A stretch of 61,267 nucleotides of DNA, counting the filler, from Globobulimina sp. (taxonomy: Eukaryota), in assembly GCA_003354225.1 (NCBI GenBank). It is 22 parts of 22 records of this genome, joined end to end, with 100 filler letters (N's around TTAATTAATTAA, not from the genome) between each part and the next. Parts side by side here need not be neighbours in the genome. Positions count along the whole stretch, not along the records: positions 2,793 to 5,483 come from PIVH01005326.1; 21 more parts are not named here. One strand, given 5' to 3'. Shown in pieces: positions 2,793 to 50,216 of the stretch. Made by a program: the position numbers and the translations under genes. The notes under the pieces are model-generated. The model searched no databases, was not told the DNA's origin, and saw only the letters and a list, made by a program, of their open reading frames with translations. The number at the start of each line of letters is the position of its first letter. Position 1 is the stretch's first letter.

Positions 2793-2794
2793 GT

Positions 2795-3484
2795 AATGGC
2801 CGCATTAACAAATTAAAATGTATCATTTTACCATTATCGGTCATTAATGACTTAAGATTCTGGCTTAAATATGTTGATAATATCAAAATTGTTTCAATGT
2901 ATACCATATTAAATAATCCATCAATAAACGTATATGCTGCCACCGATGCATGTGACTATGGAGCGGGATATGTCGTTGACTCTGTTTTTGCAAATTATAA
3001 ATTCAATAAAAACGATATTAATTTATCCATAAATCAAAAGGAAGCCCTGACGTTAATTGAGACGCATAAACATTTATTAACCGGTAAATCAGTACATTTA
3101 TACATTGATAATTCAGCATGTTATTATACAATGGTTCGCAAATGGGCTCCTTCGTATAATTTAATGATTTTTGTATTTGAATTATGTTTATTAATGATCA
3201 AATATAAGATTTTTATACGTTTTGAATGGATTCCTTCGTCGTTTAATTATTTGGCAGACAGATTATCGAGATTTGAAATGGATGACTTTGACAATTTATG
3301 TACAACATTTAATTTAAAATTTGATACAATCAGACCCGAATATTTCGGTCGCTATGAATTTCTAAAAAATAAAGCAATGCATTATAAGAATGATATGATT
3401 GAATATAATAATTTCATAAAATGGCTTAAACAGCCTTTAAATGTTCGAGCCATCTCTCCGTATAAATATTATATGAAAATCTAA
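2795..3484 (+). mobile_element. 3' end of a DIRS/Ngaro-type (tyrosine-recombinase retrotransposon) RT-RNase H ORF, 5' truncated
   Basis: Frame is open from the contig edge. DLRFW connector, then TDAC..GAG, INQKEA, VHLYIDN and WIPSSFNYLADRLSR, the D-E-D-D pattern of DIRS-type RNase HI. Confidence 0.85.
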
Positions 3485-4122
3485 GCAGTCGAAAGCTTAA
3501 AATTGATAACAGCATTTATTGAAATTTGAGTCATTATTCGCGATAAAACTAATTTGATTCATTAATTTGTAATAAATTGACAGTACAATCACGTAAATCA
3601 CGTCGTATATTTTGATAAATTGTATACATAAATCTGAGTATTTTTTGTTATTTATATCAAAAATATTGAATTAATCGATGAAATTTACACGAATTAATAT
3701 CACACATAGCATAATTAGGGACTTTCAGTAATAAATAAATGTTTTCATCGGTCATTTGACGCATTATAAACTGTTAAATATATTATAAAATTTCTCTGTC
3801 ACTGTGCGACACAATTATAAGAGAGCAACGATATGCGAAGCCTTTGTATTGCATTAAAACAATTATAAGGGATCTCTATCGAACCAGTCCTTGTATTGTT
3901 ACAACACTGTAATAACTTCAATAGCTGCTTCTAAATAATATAATGGTTTATTATATGTTTATTATGCCTCTCCGATAATGCTGCAAATTTCTAAAAACTT
4001 TTCGAACTAACTTATTTTTTGCATTCAGTTTGAAAAGTCGCACCTTGTGACAAATGGATTGCAAATGGATGGGAATGGTTTCATTGAAGAATGAATTTGG
4101 AAAGGAAAAGAGGAAGAAATTG

Positions 4123-4557
4123 GTGGTGATGAACCACAAAGAAAAGGATGAAAATAGATGATAGATTTGGTGGCAATGCAGCCCAAACACAAAACAAAAA
4201 ATGCTATTTAAAATGAGAAAGTGTGGCAATCAACAACACCAAAAAAAGTAAAAGAAAAAATGATTTGGTGGCAATCCACAGCCAGTCAGCCACAAGAAAA
4301 CAAATGAGATTTATAATGAAAGATATATTTCATTTGTGGCAATCAATAGCTACAAAAACAGCAAGCATATATTGATTGAAATGTGATTTAATTGAAGCAA
4401 CGCCAACGTTGCAAAAAAATGATATTTGAATAAATTATTTGGTGGCAATCCATAGCCACAAAACGAAACAAAAACGATATATAAATATAGAAGATGAATA
4501 TGATGGCTGTCTGAATGGCCAAAAAATTGGCCATCAAAAAGTGGCAATCCACAGCCA
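4123..4557 (+). repeat. Dispersed array of hairpin motifs GTGGC-AATC(C/A)A(C/T)A-GCCA(C)
   Basis: GTGGCAAT starts at 4170, 4223, 4268, 4336, 4442 and 4541. A variant GTGGT-GATGA-ACCAC is at 4123. Linkers are A-rich. Confidence 0.85.
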
Positions 4558-4607
4558 AAAAACACAAACATATATTGATGAATCATCCCATTCCATCTAA
4601 TTTTTTA

Positions 4608-4675
4608 TGATGATGCTTAACGAGATCAAGCATATCTTATTAAAGATAATTTGGGTTCAAATCCCAATCATCACA
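4608..4675 (+). ncRNA. tRNA-like cloverleaf, non-canonical
   Basis: Stems TGATGA/TCATCA, GCTT/AAGC, TATCT/AGATA and TTGGG-TTCAAAT-CCCAA. The anticodon loop is 6 nt and the variable region 2 nt. A T-rich tract follows. Confidence 0.65.
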
Positions 4676-5145
4676 TTTTGTTTTGTTTGTTTTGTTTGTT
4701 TTGCATGCAGGTGCTTTGAGTGCAGATCTATAGAAACGTGACAAAAATGAATCTGCTGCAGTTTAAATAGGCATAGCGAATGCAAGCTGTTTGATAAGTT
4801 TGCTGAAAAAAATGAAAAAACTTTTTGAACAGAAAAAAATTATCGGAGAGGCCTAATCCGACCACTTTTTCCGTCTTGATAGTGGTAGTGTTGCTGGCAT
4901 TATTTTTTTTACTGAATCACGGAATTATTTTGGCGCATATTTTGCGGATCAACAATGTGGATTTTTTGGTATGTTTTGCACAGTCACTCAAATTTGCAGT
5001 GGTTTGGCGGCGCAGTTTTCAAACAGCAGATCCGCATAGTGGAACAAGTATTTTATTTTTTTAAAGGTTCCATCGTTTTTAGCATCTCCTTTCGTTATAT
5101 CCACTCCATAAAATACGCCCTTTTTGCCCATGATACCACCGATAT

Positions 5146-5227
5146 AACGCACCATAGGATTCGAACCTACATCCATTTGGTTTGCTTTCCATTCAAACCA
5201 ATGCTCTGCCAATTGAGCTAGGTGCCA
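5146..5227 (-). tRNA. tRNA-like gene or pseudogene with an expanded 15-nt anticodon loop (isotype uncertain, possibly Phe-GAA with a short insertion)
   Basis: Minus strand reads GGCACC-TA-GCTC-AATTGGCA-GAGC-A-TTGGT-TTGAATGGAAAGCAA-ACCAA-ATGGAT-GTAGG-TTCGAAT-CCTAT-GGTGC. A and B boxes are good, but only 5 acceptor pairs form. Confidence 0.75.
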
Positions 5228-5350
5228 ATTTTTCTTATTTGTTGCATTTTCCATTATTTTTTTTACGGTGTGGGTGCTGCTAAAAACAAGACAGCTCCTA
5301 AATTTAATTTATTATTGAAAAAGTAAATATGAAGGGGCAAATTTAGATTG

Positions 5351-5420
5351 CTTTGAATCGGTTCCATATGAATTTAATACTTAATTGGGTTAAATTCATT
5401 AATGGAAAACCGATTCAAAG
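5351..5420. repeat. 70-nt long imperfect hairpin
   Basis: CTTTGAATCGGTT/AACCGATTCAAAG outer stem, CCAT/ATGG, and ATGAATTTAA/TTAAATTCAT inner stem. Confidence 0.9.
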
Positions 5421-5583
5421 TTGGCAGACTAAAGCGTAAGTGCCATGTAATTAACTTTGAAAGTATTAGCACTCAGAAAAAAGNNNNNNNNNNNNNNNNN
5501 NNNNNNNNNNNNNNNNNNNNNNNNNNNTTAATTAATTAANNNNNNNNNNNNNNNNNNNNNNNNNNNNNNNNNNNNNNNNNNNN

Positions 5584-6651
5584 TATGTCAATAATTTGTA
5601 TAAATGATTCATATGCATCACCAGCGAGGTCTTTTAGTCTCCTATTTTTAACTAAAATAAATATGCCATTGTACATTGGATCCATAATATTTTCTTTATC
5701 AAATAACATGGCTGGAAACTGCACGCATAACAATAATGACGATAACACCGTCGGTAACAAAGTTATGGCAATGCGCGATACAGCCGATCGGTCATCGGTT
5801 AATTGTGTACTCCATGCTTTTAATAAATGAGTAACTGCATAGTTATCGATATCTGACGATATTATTGTATCCTTTCCTGATGACAATTGATTGTCGATGT
5901 ATTGCATTATTTGTATCCTATGCTTCCAATGTGATTCTAATGTGGATAGCATAGCAATTACTTTTTCAATGTTATTCATATCCTCTTCTTTTAAAGCCCC
6001 ATATAAATAATCACTTTCTGCATTGAATGCGGTTTTGTTTGCTAAGTTTGTAAATATTTTATCCCATAGCACCCAGTTTCTTTTCTGATATGATACATTC
6101 TTTGGTTGTGCAATTTTATCAAATAAAGATAGTGTATCATTGTTGTTTAATGATTCCATCAAACAATGGATCATTCTGTAAGTAATTTTACATTTCGATA
6201 TAAATTTAAACTGTTTCTGATGGAATGAGCGCTCTTTCATTGCGTTATTGTGTGAATTGTCTCTCTTCAATCCAATATTCATTAATTCATCTGATATCAT
6301 ATTATTAATAAGCAATAATTCCCACATTAACGCGGCAATCATATCTGGTGATATCTCGATTTGGTGATTGTTTAATATAATATTAAACTGCGAATATGTT
6401 ATTTCCATTCCAATCAAATCCGTTTCGTCATTTGTTGGGTTGTTTTCAATGATATAGTTTGCAAATAACGTACATATTTCATTGACTCGTAATGGTAATG
6501 TAAAATCTCGCTTTGAACGACGAAAAAGTAATGAAGATTCGCGTTTTAAATGCAATTTATGTCGATGCTGTGGCCCTAATGACGTCGTGGCACTTAGTGA
6601 CGATGGCATATGGCTTATTGTAAGTGGTTGAGGCATATCATCATCAGCCAT
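5584..6651 (-). CDS. CLASP-N/TOG (HEAT-repeat) domain protein, 3' truncated
   Basis: HWKHRIQIM...QLTDDRSAVSRIAITLL resembles the W..R and D.RS.V...A signatures of CLASP TOG domains. Confidence 0.6.
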
Positions 6652-6655
6652 TGCA

Positions 6656-6704
6656 AATGAATCGGCAGAGAATGAATCAGCAGAGAATGATCAGCAGAGA
6701 ATGA
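6656..6704. repeat. 15-nt tandem repeat AATGAATC(G/A)GCAGAG, about 3.3 copies
   Basis: Directly visible, just upstream of the minus-strand start codon. Confidence 0.85.
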
Positions 6705-13632: not shown

Positions 13633-14186
13633 CGTAGTTTTTTGATTAAAGAAATGTGTTTGTGCAGTGCTATGAATTTATAATCTTCGCAGATTGCAAC
13701 TTTACCGATGGGATTCTGGAGACATTTGTTTCTCGTGTCATCCTCGCGCAGGTGGCAATATTCGACCGTGTGAAGTTTAAATACTGATGGCGAATGATTG
13801 CTAATTGAAAACTAAAACCAATATCTCTCTCACCGACGAGTCCACAGTGATTCTGTNNNNNNNNNNNNNNNNNNNNNNNNNNNNNNNNNNNNNNNNNNNN
13901 TTAATTAATTAANNNNNNNNNNNNNNNNNNNNNNNNNNNNNNNNNNNNNNNNNNNNATAAAATAGCGATTAAATGTAACCATTTACCGGCTTTTTTCTCT
14001 TCTGCTGTGATTTTGGAACGATTGCGGAATTCATAAAATAAAATGATTGAACAAGCCGTAAATCCAACAGTTTGCAAAGCTACACAGCTAATTTGTCCAT
14101 TTTTGAAAAATGCTTCCGACATTATTTATTTCAGTGAAAACTTTTGTTTAATTTTTTATTTATTCGAAAATAAAAGATTGTGAGTG

Positions 14187-30361: not shown

Positions 30362-30900
30362 TTGCAAGTAACAGTTTTGTTTCGGGTTTTTCTTTTTAGA
30401 TTTTGTGTGAACTGTTTAGATCATTCAAACAAAATAAATAAAACAGAACGTTGTGTAAGCGACGAAGGTTTCATTTAAGTTTGAGAAAACTCAAGTGACT
30501 GACTGATCGAAAGTGTTTTTGTTTTTTGTGTTGTGAATTCTTTCTTTCTTTTTTGCCCAGAGATTGGTATAGGTTTGGTATTGTGGTATATGTTNNNNNN
30601 NNNNNNNNNNNNNNNNNNNNNNNNNNNNNNNNNNNNNNTTAATTAATTAANNNNNNNNNNNNNNNNNNNNNNNNNNNNNNNNNNNNNNNNNNNNAATCCA
30701 ACACCCTGTAGTCGTAAATATTGAAATAGTTACCCATATTGTTGCTGTTGCAAATAATAAAATTGGCTGTAAGTATTTATATAAAATTGATCGATGGTCT
30801 CGTAATTGATTTTGCGACTGAAATCCCACGAAAAACTTTTACAACCTATTTTCTAAATCATTAGCAAACTATTTGAAAAGAACTAGCAAACATTACCCAG

Positions 30901-33383
30901 ATGTATTGTATTGTGTTGTTTTTTACAATCAATAACATACTAAGCATACAATCATATAATACTCCGAAAAAATTGTTTTTAATTATTATTTATCTTGTAT
31001 GTAATACATGTAATAGCAAACCATATTATTATTTATCACCGAGCAAATTATCATTGACTGCAGCCAATCATTTTTGTATTGATCATTGTGACAGCACATT
31101 AGCATCCATTCATAACCATTTCGAAAACAATTTTGCAACCACACTCATAACAAATGAAGCTATTAATGATGAGACTTTTGTATGGATTGGATTATATTTT
31201 TCTGTAGCAAATAAAATATGGAAATGGACAGATGACACATTGTTTGATTTTGGGGCAAACTACACAGCATATCCATGGTCACAAAATACATCATTTGGGA
31301 AAAGTTATGGATGTGTTATTATAGACAGTAATTATGAATGGCAAATAAAAAATGGTGTTGAATGTGCTGGAAAACTGAGATTTTTATGTAACTCATGTCA
31401 TGGAAAATTAAATAAATATTTAATTTTAAGTAATGAAGAATTAACATACAACGAAAGTGCAAATATGTGCCATTCTGAATTAAATACAACAATGATAAGT
31501 ATCAATAACAATGAATATGACTTAAAAGAAGCACAGAAATTATGTGAATGGGGCGCAAGGAAAGATTGTTGGATCGGAGATGAGCAAAACCTATATAATA
31601 ATTCGTGTATTGTTTTGAAACAAAATGCGAGATTTGCGTTGAGTGATGATTTGTGTTCAAATAAAAACAATTTTTTATGTGGAAATCCGAACGAACTATG
31701 TTATGATTATAATTGGGACAGTTTATATCATGAGAAACTGTGGATTTGACGAATGTAATATTATGGAGGATGCCAAATATATGGATAAAGTTGTAATTAA
31801 TACAAAGAAAAAATGGGTAAATTATAATAAACAGTTAATTGTCGAATATATTTACGAAATGAAGCAAATGAATATTGGTATTGGAATTGCTGGCGTTTTA
31901 ATATACAATTTTAATGAAAATAGTATTTGCACTCATTATTATATTGGAATCGCAGATGAATGGTATAAAAAAAGAATATTTTTAAGTAAATATTATGAAA
32001 ATACAGAATATGAATTGCAATCCGTTATTGTTAATAATGATAGTTTGCAACTACAAAATGCATTTTATATATTATATATTGAGGTAATTAACGGTACGAG
32101 TTATAATATTAAACTAAATAATAAACAATATATTTTATTCAAAGACAATTCGACTGATATTGACGGCACAACAAACGACGATAATTCTGCTTATATTGGA
32201 TTAAAAATGTATAATGTACGTATTGATAGTAAATCATTATACGTTTCAGGATCGTCGATATATACAAATAATAGCAGTGTTTTTAATAAATGTAAACCAA
32301 AGAACATATTATTTGAGCCATTATATCCTCCAACAAATGCACCAACACTTAATGCCCTAATATATGGAGTTACAATTGAAATAAAATTTGAATCACAATC
32401 ATCAGTCCACAGTTTAAATAAATCAATAATAAAAATAAAAAACATTGTATCGGATTCGGATATAAATAATTGTAACAAATCATTGACCCATTCCATAAAT
32501 ATTAAATCATTAAATTATGAAACAACAATCACTGACAATATTATTGTGTGTAACAGAGACATACAACAAATGTTAACAGTCTATATTCAAAATAACAGCC
32601 AATTAATTATTGAGAATATCAGAAATATTCCAGAAACAGAAGCAATTACAATAAATGTTATTCCATTTACAATTGCAAACAATCATAATTCCGATTCAAT
32701 GAAACCAACAAAAGCTCCAAGTTCAAAAAATACAGTTATAGTAATAGCAGATAATAGGAATTCGAATGGTTTATCCATAATAATTTTATATATCATAGGT
32801 GCAGTTTGTGTGTCGATATTCTGTGTATTTATTGTTTGTGGTTTAGTTATTTTGAAATCAAGAACCTTGGATAGAATATCAGAAGAAGATGATTTTAATA
32901 TTACTAAAGAAGCATTTGTGATGAGTGAAAATAAAGGTTTTCAGATGGAAGATAATGGAGAAAGTATATCTGATTTAAGTCCGAATGAAAGAGATCGACG
33001 AATTACCAATATTAATGATGAAGGCATTGAATTATTTCAAATGAAACAAAAACAATCACAATTTGTGATTGAAGGCGATGATTATAATGATTATAATGAT
33101 GATGCTTTGAGCTACATTGTTGGCAATAATAATAATAAAGTAACAGTTGGAATGAATGGTAATATGGCTATACCAAATTATATACAAAATGATGATGAAA
33201 GTATTACGAGTACAGAGAGTATGGCAAGTCCCAATAATAAGAATAATAATAATTATGCAACGTTAACTGCATTTGTTAAAAAAAGATCTGCTTATTCACC
33301 AATTGAGGATAATGATGATTTTGTTGCGAAGAGTTATTATCATAATGATGACCCATTGTCTTTGTTAAATAACCCAAATTACG
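30901..33383 (+). CDS. Single-pass receptor with two C-type lectin domains, PTxAPT stalk and TM; frameshift at about 31745, 3' truncated
   Basis: A..FC....LASIH, VWIGL, WKWTD, RFLC, and a second CWIG..FLC. TM IIILYIIGAVCVSIFCVFIVCGLVIL is in the overlapping second ORF. Confidence 0.8.
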
Positions 33384-48693: not shown

Positions 48694-49149
48694 AGATGGC
48701 AATCATGGTCTTGCTGCCTCACCAAAAAGCCTTGGTTTTGCGGCGCGCCTATCTCTGCCCTTATAAGGGGATTCCCTTTATAAGGGGAAAAAGATACGTT
48801 ATGCCCTTTATAAGGGGCAATGTAGCACAGCCTGTCTATGTTCGCGTAGTAGAGGGCGCCTCACTACCATGCCTCGAACCACATTCAGTAACCTATAGGT
48901 TACCACTCGCCTTTTGTATACCTATAGGTATCGCAGCTACCCTCAATCCAATCACCCCCCGAACCTATAGGTTGCCACTAACGTCATTTACCCGGTGCAA
49001 CACCGCATTGATTACATCGACACACAACCTATACACCCGGTGTAAAACGGTCTTGATCGCGTCAGCACACCGCATATATACCCGGTACAAATTGCACTCA
49101 CTACGTGATCAACACCCTATAGCCACTCCATTATTAACAGGGGCTTAAA

Positions 49150-50115
49150 ATGCAGTTGCTTAATGCCATCAATAGCCTGTCAGGGATTGGCACGAGAGAA
49201 TGCCCAAAATGGCGAGAGTCAATTCTCAGGCGCCACCATTCGATCAGTCACTATCTAGCCATAGGCTACAAACGGCGAGCTGATGAGCAAAATTACGTCA
49301 TAGCCAATCAATGGCTTGGAAGCTTAAGCCAACGGCTAAAACTTGGACATACTGGCCTATATCTGAACAGCTGCGTAGAAGAACTCAATGATTACTGCAA
49401 GGCAAAAGCCCATAAAACCGAGTTAGAGATTCATGAAACCGTTAATATGGTCGGTAAAGATCTCGCCCCGCTCATGCTGAAAAAATATATTGAATATGCG
49501 GGTGTAAAACTGCCTCTACCTGACAACTACAAAAAAGAAGATATTGTCCCAGCCCTTGCCAGAGCCTGCGATGAAAGGTGGTGGAGGCGTCAACTAAGAG
49601 ACAAACAATGGCGTGAAATGGAAGACTTTCTTAGAAAGGAAGGATTTGTTCATAAAAGCCAAGAAATCTATATCAGTGATTTCAGCCTGCAACGCCGTCT
49701 GACCCAAAAGAAGAAAAACCGCGAACTGCTTGAAAAGATGGAGGCTGAAAATGAAGAAGGCCAAACGTTCAGTCTTAGCGAATTAGCTGATCTGTCGCCG
49801 TCCAATCCCATTATCCGGCGCAATGAACTTATGGTTCGCCTGCGAGGTTTTGAAGACTTTGCCGATGAATCATCAGAAGGCTACATGGGAATATTTTATA
49901 CCCTCACCTGTCCCTCAAAATATCACGCTCGCTATCAACACGGTGTTGCGAACCCCAAATATAACGGAAGCACTCCGCAAGATAGCCACAATTATCTCAA
50001 TAATGTGTGGCAAAGGACTCGCTCGGCATGGCAACGCGAAGGCATTAAAACTTTTGGCATGCGAGTTGTTGAACCACACCACGACGGCACACCACACTGG
50101 CACCTTTTACTATTT
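49150..50115 (+). CDS. P2 gpA-like rolling-circle replication endonuclease, 3' truncated
   Basis: WWRRQL, NP.IRR.ELMVR.RGFE, FYTLTCPSKYH and RVVEPHHDGTPHWHLLLF (HUH motif). Confidence 0.93.
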
Positions 50116-50216
50116 NNNNNNNNNNNNNNNNNNNNNNNNNNNNNNNNNNNNNNNNNNNNTTAATTAATTAANNNNNNNNNNNNNNNNNNNNNNNNNNNNN
50201 NNNNNNNNNNNNNNNC

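Follow-up and report, generated by a model that had tools for sequence, protein, structure and literature searches.

The stretch of Globobulimina sp. DNA analysed here (61,267 nt, assembly GCA_003354225.1; referred to throughout as the window) carries at positions 4607-4675, on the plus strand, a shrunken tRNA-like module that stands behind a tandem array of GC hairpins. The module lies in a 1.5-kb gap between an open reading frame (ORF) on the plus strand that ends at 3484 and a minus-strand ORF that ends at 4988. The window has a GC content of ~30%, with ORFs densely packed on both strands, and contains a canonical U4 small nuclear RNA (snRNA) gene at 13740-13856 (+; 61 bits with Rfam), the 3' part of which enters an N mask. 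Since that gene is canonical and the window is AT-rich and ORF-dense, we read the window as nuclear DNA of a eukaryote. An origin in a giant virus was considered and rejected: AAAATTGA, which we take to be the early promoter motif of mimivirus, occurs 16 times against 20.6 occurrences expected, and the canonical U4 snRNA is present. For an actin-like ORF of the window no match exceeds 30% identity; a PPR protein has metagenome and EukProt entries with 32-49% identity among its ten best hits, and the phyla given by the Atlas are mixed. Masks of 44 N recur in pairs every ~2.8 kb across the window (42 runs), interrupting several ORFs and restricting the placement of reads; positions 2793-5483 are free of them.

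The array and the module are parts of a unit that spans 3966-4852. Its left end is an inverted repeat, GCCTCTCCGATAAT (3966-3979, +), seen as one of two perfect inverted copies and with TA just outside it at 3963-3964; the right copy, located by the inverted-repeat search, occupies 4839-4852 on the minus strand, with TA at 4854-4855. Between the two ends there follow, all on the plus strand, a leader (4051-4098), in which two motifs of CAAATGGAT type are found together with the 5' arm of a stem that closes the array; the array proper (4100-4573), which repeat analysis resolves into ~9 imperfect units, each with a short GTGGCAATCC-type hairpin; the 3' arm of the closing stem (4574-4597); a run of six T (T6, 4601-4606); the module; a T/G-rich tract (4676-4703) with four T (T4) beginning at the first base after the module (+1); and a trailer (4704-4838). 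The closing stem is an imperfect inverted repeat of 4072-4092 with 4574-4594, 71% complementary, and it is also found in the minimum-free-energy (MFE) fold. An earlier interpretation made from the DNA alone (the sequence-only reading) had placed this stem 11 nt before the cloverleaf; we find that it ends ~10 nt upstream.

The tRNA-like module

The 69 bases at 4607-4675 are a real tRNA-derived cloverleaf. The acceptor stem pairs 4607-4613 with 4668-4674 and encloses a D arm (4615-4631), an anticodon-like hairpin (4633-4648) and a T arm (4651-4667); a discriminator A follows at 4675. The Rfam tRNA model (RF00005) matches over model positions 1-71 with 28.7 bits against a gathering threshold of 29, and with an E value of 0.0017 that refers to a scan of 1.5 kb with all 4227 families. 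In the Rfam alignment a single base connects the acceptor and D stems (standard tRNA has two), the anticodon loop has 6 nt (one base missing), the variable region has 2 nt (two bases missing) and the T loop is the canonical TTCAAAT, exactly as the sequence-only reading had described them; the MFE fold draws the anticodon-like hairpin with a 6-bp stem and a 4-nt loop. The cloverleaf of that reading is thus borne out by the tRNA fit, with its start shifted from 4608 one base to the left. It had seen four perfectly paired stems; in the register of the family described below, 20 of the 21 pairs are Watson-Crick and pair 1-72 is A.C. Of 11 aligned relatives, eight have G-C at that pair, and at least five contigs of sequencing run X1 have G at 4607.

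The cloverleaf is the MFE fold of the isolated sequence (z -2.4), and it persists within a 641-nt fold of array and element together. Scanning for four perfect stems with generous loops, the ranges of which were set after the candidate had been seen, gave one match in the window, at 4607-4675, and none in 200 first-order Markov random windows searched on both strands. A chance origin of the cloverleaf is excluded for practical purposes. ARAGORN finds no gene in the window in its bacterial mode and makes no plain plus-strand call for 4607-4675 in its default, intron, relaxed and mitochondrial modes, so that the relaxed-mode ARAGORN check proposed in the sequence-only reading came out negative; at lowered thresholds its only calls there are one on the minus strand and one with an 84-nt intron. 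An Rfam scan of the whole window at E <= 1 does not list the module, probably because of the filters.

A family of tRNA-like copies

Patterns for the tRNA-like and for the left end of the unit had no match in metagenome contigs and viral contigs; a 14-mer gave single chance matches alone in the viral contigs and was not used. A degenerate pattern searched against genome contigs led to L117, an AT-rich contig of 592 nt that is filed in a bacterial metagenome-assembled genome, G001, and that contains a 64-nt tRNA-like (copy L118; 41.6 bits with the Rfam tRNA model). Pattern search of the whole of genome G001 gave six matches against none for the reversed control. The AT-rich contigs of G001 are judged to be eukaryotic in origin because of their composition, an apparent histone H3 end in L133 and the likeness of L125 and L133 to the window. 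A covariance model (R1) built from six G001 copies, with no window sequence in it, retrieves from G001 seven copies at 81-96.2 bits, L125 at 49.8 bits, L126 at 35.8 bits and then weaker matches, L127-L129 among them. Applied to the window, it finds 4607-4675 at 50.3 bits (E 2.7e-13), the runner-up in the 61 kb being at 17.4 bits. As judged by these scores, the window module and L118-L125 make up a family with at least nine close copies, 63-74 nt long. L118-L124 are referred to below as the seven G001-type copies; the window copy and L125 are window-type. L123 (46.6 bits) and L125 (35.3 bits) lie above the Rfam tRNA threshold of 29. A more distant tRNA-like group in G001, L127-L129, has the short D arm and the variable anticodon-arm hairpins alike; in L129 the same ~120-nt stretch is present at either contig end, so that its unit is tandem or circular.

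The nine copies differ very unevenly along their length. In the acceptor strands, GTGATGA and TCATCAC, the only departures are an A at position 1 of the window copy and an A at position 72 of L118; the T stem is identical and the discriminator is A in all nine. The T loop is TTCAAAT in four copies, TCCAAAT in two and TCTAAAT in three. The D stem ends in C-G or in T-A, the latter a compensatory change found in the window and L120, with one mismatch in L125. The D loop has 5 nt in the seven G001-type copies and 9 nt in the window and L125, and it is without GG in eight of the nine (six of the seven G001-type copies); the G001 copies keep two connector bases between acceptor and D stems. The anticodon arm is the most variable part: 5 bp with a 7-nt loop in L118, L121, L122 and L123, 7 bp with 3 nt in L119, 6 bp with 4 nt in L124 and the window, 3 bp with 6 nt in L120, and 5 bp with 11 nt in L125. 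New pairs created by base changes lengthen the stem in L119, L124 and the window. On this comparison the top half of the molecule (7-bp acceptor stem, 5-bp T stem with 7-nt loop, discriminator A) is conserved, and the D loop and anticodon arm are free. That free half is what decoding needs, and the variation in the anticodon loop does not look like that of an anticodon loop under selection. All eight relatives form the cloverleaf when folded singly (z -3.0 to -5.4).

These comparisons bear directly on another explanation, an ordinary tRNA gene that is decaying or still decoding. The Rfam tRNA model does fit end to end, and an anticodon arm of 5 bp and 7 nt can be drawn in four G001 copies; in that register, however, connector base 26 and the variable region are both missing, the D loop is without GG, the loop of the anticodon arm runs from 3 to 11 nt, and the window copy gets no plus-strand call from ARAGORN. 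The shrunken design is common to nine copies, with the stems kept. We regard an ordinary tRNA gene as very improbable. The sequence-only reading, which had thought decoding unlikely, is strengthened on this point, the tRNA-like being almost certainly non-decoding as far as loop lengths and the missing GG can tell; where it had allowed that homologues might expose a decaying ordinary tRNA, they do the opposite. Because the homologues share the shrunken form and exhibit compensatory changes, the family represents a conserved design rather than decay.

Hairpin arrays and the place of the module

A hairpin array lies directly upstream, on the same strand, in seven of the nine copies, and seven of the nine arrays seen are ended by a module. 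The link between array and tRNA-like that had been pointed out for the window alone is therefore a property of the family. The arrays themselves are built from three unrelated hairpin types. The GTGGCAATCC type is found in the window and in L125, between which whole units have been gained or lost; L121, L122 and L123 have the GGCGGCGAAGCCGCC type, L124 has the GGCGACGCAGTCGCC type and L119 mixes GGCGGCGAAGCCGCC with GGCGACGCAGTCGCC. Perfect GC hairpins within 600 nt upstream number three each in the window, L125 and L124, four in L122, nine in L123, ten in L119 and twelve in L121; the last of them lies 12-25 nt from the module in the G001 type. When G001 is searched for the GGCGGCGAAGCCGCC hairpin, 29 of 29 matches fall within four contigs, each of which has a module; a search of G001 with the window-type hairpin gives five matches in L125 and one in L133.

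On the downstream side, a run of T4 or longer begins at +1 in six of the nine copies and within 12 nt in eight, the first in L118 being at +83. A T-rich tract, which the sequence-only reading had noticed in the window, follows all nine. When the window unit is compared by BLAST with the seven G001-type loci, the alignable part is 4634-4702 only, that is, the 3' two-thirds of the module and the T tract. By this measure the module is the sole part common to units that otherwise show no relation in leader, array or trailer. No T4 run occurs in 4022-4600 (579 nt of the window), nor in the arrays of L121, L123 and L125, with one in L122 and two in L119; the repeat structure of the arrays makes this scarcity weak evidence.

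Several observations on the upstream regions can be recorded here. Ahead of the GGCGGCGAAGCCGCC arrays (L119, L121, L122, L123) stands a conserved leader, ~100 nt long, that contains a TATAAT-like box and a stem of CCATCC / GGATG; these four loci remain homologous for at least another 300 nt upstream of it and, on the other side, for at least 100 nt past the module. A promoter motif common with the U4 gene was sought and dropped as not conserved: TCTTCGCAG occurs upstream of U4 and in two of the four G001 leaders, GATTGCAA in the window leader. The 9-mer GGTGGCAAT, with which most hairpin units at 4166-4556 begin, also occurs in the 5' region of U4.

The mismatches in the array hairpins offer a hint of strand. 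Among 46 hairpins with at most one non-Watson-Crick pair, 23 are perfect and 23 have one such pair; the single odd pairs are 14 G.T and no A.C when read on the module (plus) strand, and nine of other kinds. Counted by distinct hairpin sequence, G.T leads A.C by 11 to 0, with three of the 11 judged to be register artefacts and with tandem copies that are not independent of each other. Since the wobble pairs are on one strand only, they hint at a single-stranded form of the plus strand, most simply an RNA that runs in the direction of the module.

An alternative that makes no use of such an RNA places the action in the DNA: RNA polymerase III (Pol III) and TFIIIC assembled on the module would constitute a polar replication fork barrier or a recombination hot spot that breeds hairpin minisatellites and delimits them on one side. 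It would explain why unrelated array types stand on the same side of the same module, why array length differs between copies by whole units, and why solo modules exist; the array directly 3' of a tRNA-like of another family in L133 (see below) also suits it. For the short tandem repeats next to tRNA genes of Entamoeba, Pol III complexes have been proposed as fork barriers tied to repeat formation (PMC2652664). Against it, leader, array, module and trailer have been copied jointly in L119 and L121-L123, so that the arrays there did not arise locus by locus; hairpin pairing is kept by compensation (for example, GGCGGC/GCCGCC versus GGCGAC/GTCGCC); and the one-strand wobble points to a strand-specific single-stranded form rather than to duplex DNA. 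We consider a DNA-level role unlikely.

A proposed boundary module for array RNA

Our tentative preference, held with rather less than even confidence, is that the tRNA-like is a boundary module, a handle for RNases P and Z joined to a terminator, that sets the 3' end of an array RNA. The sequence-only reading had likewise suggested that the tRNA-like may define this end, and its interpretation is partly supported. The conserved half of the molecule, its constant position downstream of arrays and on their own strand, and the T run that follows are all in keeping with such a module. RNase P, RNase Z and the CCA-adding enzyme depend on the acceptor stem, T arm and discriminator, an established point for minihelix substrates and for mascRNA (PMC8457004, PMC11693755). 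Cleavage at the 5' side of the module would be expected because the parts that are conserved are those that these enzymes need. The family, its structure, its position and the T run are observed; transcription, cleavage and any function of the array RNA belong to the model, which runs as follows. Transcription would pass through the hairpin array into the module; RNase P would cleave at the 5' side of the module, leaving an array RNA with a defined 3' end; a small tRNA-like RNA of ~64-74 nt would be released; and the T run behind the module would terminate transcription. In the window type, the module would act on a non-coding RNA borne by a transposon, the unit 3966-4852. Taken one step further, these loci might encode a family of RNAs, long and non-coding (lncRNAs), made of GC hairpins with AU-rich linkers, borne on mobile elements, whose 3' ends are cut at a shrunken tRNA-like cap in a manner convergent with MALAT1 and NEAT1, the freed tRNA-like of 64-74 nt being a second product; this larger proposal we hold to be possible, though doubtful.

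A number of points weigh against a boundary module. Two of the nine copies are without an array (L120 has no hairpin in 600 nt, L118 none in the 86 nt available), and two arrays are without a module, both in L133, one of them short and the other placed after a tRNA-like of another family. In the window type, T6 lies between array and module, and Pol III could not read the array into the module because of this run at 4601-4606. Reading 4556-4606 by eye, with no formal search, we saw no A-rich tract or U-rich partner for a triple helix such as MALAT1 has. Positions 55-56 of the T loop vary among the nine copies. The acceptor and T-stem sequences, beyond their pairing, are the same across types, an identity that processing alone does not need. 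The covariation looks strong in an 11-sequence alignment (96.8% of cells paired, two-sided changes in 10 of 21 pairs, matched by none of 500 shuffles), but this alignment was fitted to the model and its most distant rows, L126 and L127, contribute much of the signal. Finally, G001 may be the same organism or a closely related one, in which case the copies are other loci, possibly of a single species.

The unit as a possible mobile element

The unit itself has the marks of mobility. Its inverted repeat is perfect over 14 nt in the window (three matches at <= 2 mismatches against 0.10 expected) and extends over 23 nt in L125 and in contigs of runs X1 and X2. The alignment of L125 with the window begins within the array and takes in T6, the module, the T tract and the trailer (4738-4838 being near-identical) before it reaches the right inverted repeat; just past that repeat and its TA the homology ends. 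T6 is kept in L125 and is absent in L119 and L121-L124. Behind 4838, L125, two X1 contigs and one X2 contig have nine bases that are missing from the window copy, which has therefore suffered a small deletion at this point. TA flanks the unit on either side in the window and on the right side in L125, in DNA of 30% GC in which TA is common. Run X1 supplies 325 contigs on 2793-5483, in four identity bands, and many of them match the unit at 80-99% identity. Their summed depth peaks at 4593-4682; it is unusable as copy number because the real tRNAs of other organisms can match the T arm. In run X3, from another study, one contig has the two unit ends linked by 79 nt that take the place of the interior, as a deletion derivative would, and a 155-nt contig covers 4488-4666. 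Run X6, which is RNA only by guess, has a few short contigs on 3950-4175 and 4428-4462, and they have no bearing on expression. With terminal inverted repeats and copies at different sites, as in MITEs (miniature transposable elements with inverted repeats), the window unit looks like a dispersed non-autonomous inverted-repeat element of ~890 bp. No inverted repeats were found around the G001-type units in the contigs at hand, and no transposase or autonomous partner was seen.

Mobility invites the reading that the module is selfish cargo, a tRNA-derived mini-gene of Pol III type, with B-box region and T-run terminator, carried in non-autonomous inverted-repeat elements, with the array as an internal minisatellite and no role for an array RNA. 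The likeness of the copies would then reflect their youth, homogenisation, or binding of TFIIIC and Pol III that aids the repeat. The whole unit shared by the window and L125, with homology that stops at the right repeat and TA, the inverted ends (14 nt in the window, 23 nt in L125), TA on both sides in the window and the apparent internal deletion derivative in X3 are all what such an element should show. With T4 or more at +1, six of nine copies are laid out like ordinary Pol III tRNA genes, T6 upstream makes the window-type module a separate Pol III unit, and L118 and L120 are solo copies. Against this, the flanking TA is weak evidence in DNA of 30% GC, and the G001-type units have neither inverted repeats nor a transposase partner in sight. 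The core of the B box varies in five of the nine copies, odd for a selected promoter, and the D and anticodon stems have undergone compensatory changes. The module alone is shared by repeat types with unalignable leaders, arrays and trailers, which argues for constraint rather than youth. Selfish cargo is in our estimation a possibility, if a questionable one.

The ends of the unit also bear on a suggestion of the sequence-only reading, that the tRNA-like may serve as a cis primer, and on the kindred idea that it is a 3' structure recognised when the array RNA is reverse-transcribed. These draw only on analogy with tRNA-primed retroelements and with the 3' tRNA-like ends of retroplasmids. The unit ends, however, are inverted repeats, and the ORF list for 3485-5483 and the related loci, read with no dedicated search, brought to notice neither a reverse transcriptase nor a primer-binding site, a long terminal repeat or, on this strand, an A-rich tail. 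Since no retroelement feature came to notice, the suggestion is without support and we consider it barely credible.

Positions 4738-4797 in the trailer weakly resemble U4 (E 0.05, with 67% over 60 nt), which was taken as chance, Rfam finding no U4 there. Translation of 4601-4738 against a protein collection, in which mis-called ORFs of paralogues were sought, gave no candidate. Window positions 30700-33380 had no match in G001, which is uninformative.

Neighbouring features

A tRNA-like of a second family lies at 5146-5227 on the minus strand (40.6 bits with the Rfam tRNA model; called by ARAGORN with an intron). It has an insert of 8-11 nt in the anticodon loop and, by eye, 4-5 acceptor pairs, and shares 93.5% identity with L133:803-895 across 93 nt; in L133, a hairpin array of GCCGTC...GGCGGC type lies directly 3' of the tRNA-like. 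The 13-mer AATGGATTGCAAA is common to the array leader in the window and the anticodon-arm region of the second tRNA-like in L133. The second tRNA-like is outside the unit and yet, to go by these resemblances, related to it. A minus-strand frame, 4988-5308, passes through the second tRNA-like and encodes a CAP-Gly fragment (Pfam 29.5 bits, model positions 14-49); it may be the terminal exon of the gene at 5536-6690. Positions 5049-5155 are ~98% identical in X2, X3 and X6 contigs. In L133, positions 1-270 show by eye what appears to be the end of a histone H3 gene, followed by a match to the histone 3' stem-loop (26.9 bits against a threshold of 34); this histone-like end adjoins a diverged left end of a window-type unit.

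Further away, an ORF at 49138-50163 (+) matches Phage_GPA (bacteriophage replication protein A) with 236 bits. It sits in a stretch of 37-45% GC at 48-54 kb, the rest of the window being at 30% GC, and could have been acquired by gene transfer, belong to an integrated element or reflect a chimeric assembly.

Comparison with known systems

Of the elements with which the unit can be compared, MITEs of the Stowaway/Tc1-mariner type with internal minisatellites resemble it in their inverted ends, in TA on either side as seen in the window, in differing flanking DNA, in a short, internally deleted form and in a variable internal tandem array. The window unit differs from them in its ~890 bp, in its conserved tRNA-like and in that no autonomous partner was found, and G001-type units show no inverted repeats. 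In tRNA-derived short interspersed nuclear elements (SINEs) and in the TMERs of murine gammaherpesvirus 68, a 5' tRNA-like drives transcription of what follows. Common ground with them is a tRNA-derived module joined to structured RNA and a T-run terminator of Pol III type. Here, by contrast, the tRNA-like is 3'-terminal, with T4 or more at +1 in six of nine copies, which is not the layout of a SINE.

In the tRNA arrays of Entamoeba (PMC2652664), too, polymorphic tandem repeats lie directly beside genes of tRNA type; L133 has a tRNA-like and then an array, and the window an array and then a tRNA-like. The Entamoeba tRNAs are functional, and entire units recur there head to tail to form very long arrays, whereas here a single non-decoding copy stands in 61 kb of a gene-rich region, next to repeats made of GC hairpins. 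Should the module turn out to be selfish or to act at the level of DNA, the locus would be a clear example of minisatellites organised by tRNA-derived modules, a connection that has been discussed mainly for Entamoeba. Whatever their role, such elements score near the tRNA threshold and are not to be counted as tRNA genes in annotation.

NEAT1 and MALAT1 have been called the only lncRNAs matured by the tRNA machinery (PMC12941219 and its preprint). Keyword searching of open-access literature brought up no account of a tRNA-like that caps hairpin arrays, which is not proof of absence. If the module does direct processing, a solution in the style of MALAT1 and NEAT1 arose more than once, outside vertebrates, and the natural variants, with acceptor and T arm fixed and the rest free, would show what the minimal handle for RNases P and Z is.

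At MALAT1 and NEAT1, RNase P cleavage at mascRNA and menRNA creates the 3' end of the upstream RNA (PMC8457004, PMC11693755). The module differs from these two small RNAs in many respects. It is unrelated to them in sequence: tRNA, but no family of mascRNA type, is among the 14 matches that Rfam gives for 3900-5400 at E <= 10. T6 lies upstream here, and no A-rich tract or triple-helix element was seen by eye, formal search not being part of this comparison. A T run follows at once downstream; the module is multi-copy, sits in a repeat with inverted ends and is preceded by a hairpin array; the setting is an AT-rich, gene-dense eukaryote; and cleavage is only predicted. The resemblances concern form and place. 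As with mascRNA and menRNA, a small, non-decoding tRNA-like that retains the acceptor/T-arm half and has a reduced anticodon region stands at the downstream end of a non-coding unit, and in seven of the nine copies a same-strand non-coding unit lies upstream, in the sense of genomic adjacency only. By analogy, then, among the systems considered the module may be said to work most like mascRNA and menRNA, while standing outside their family.

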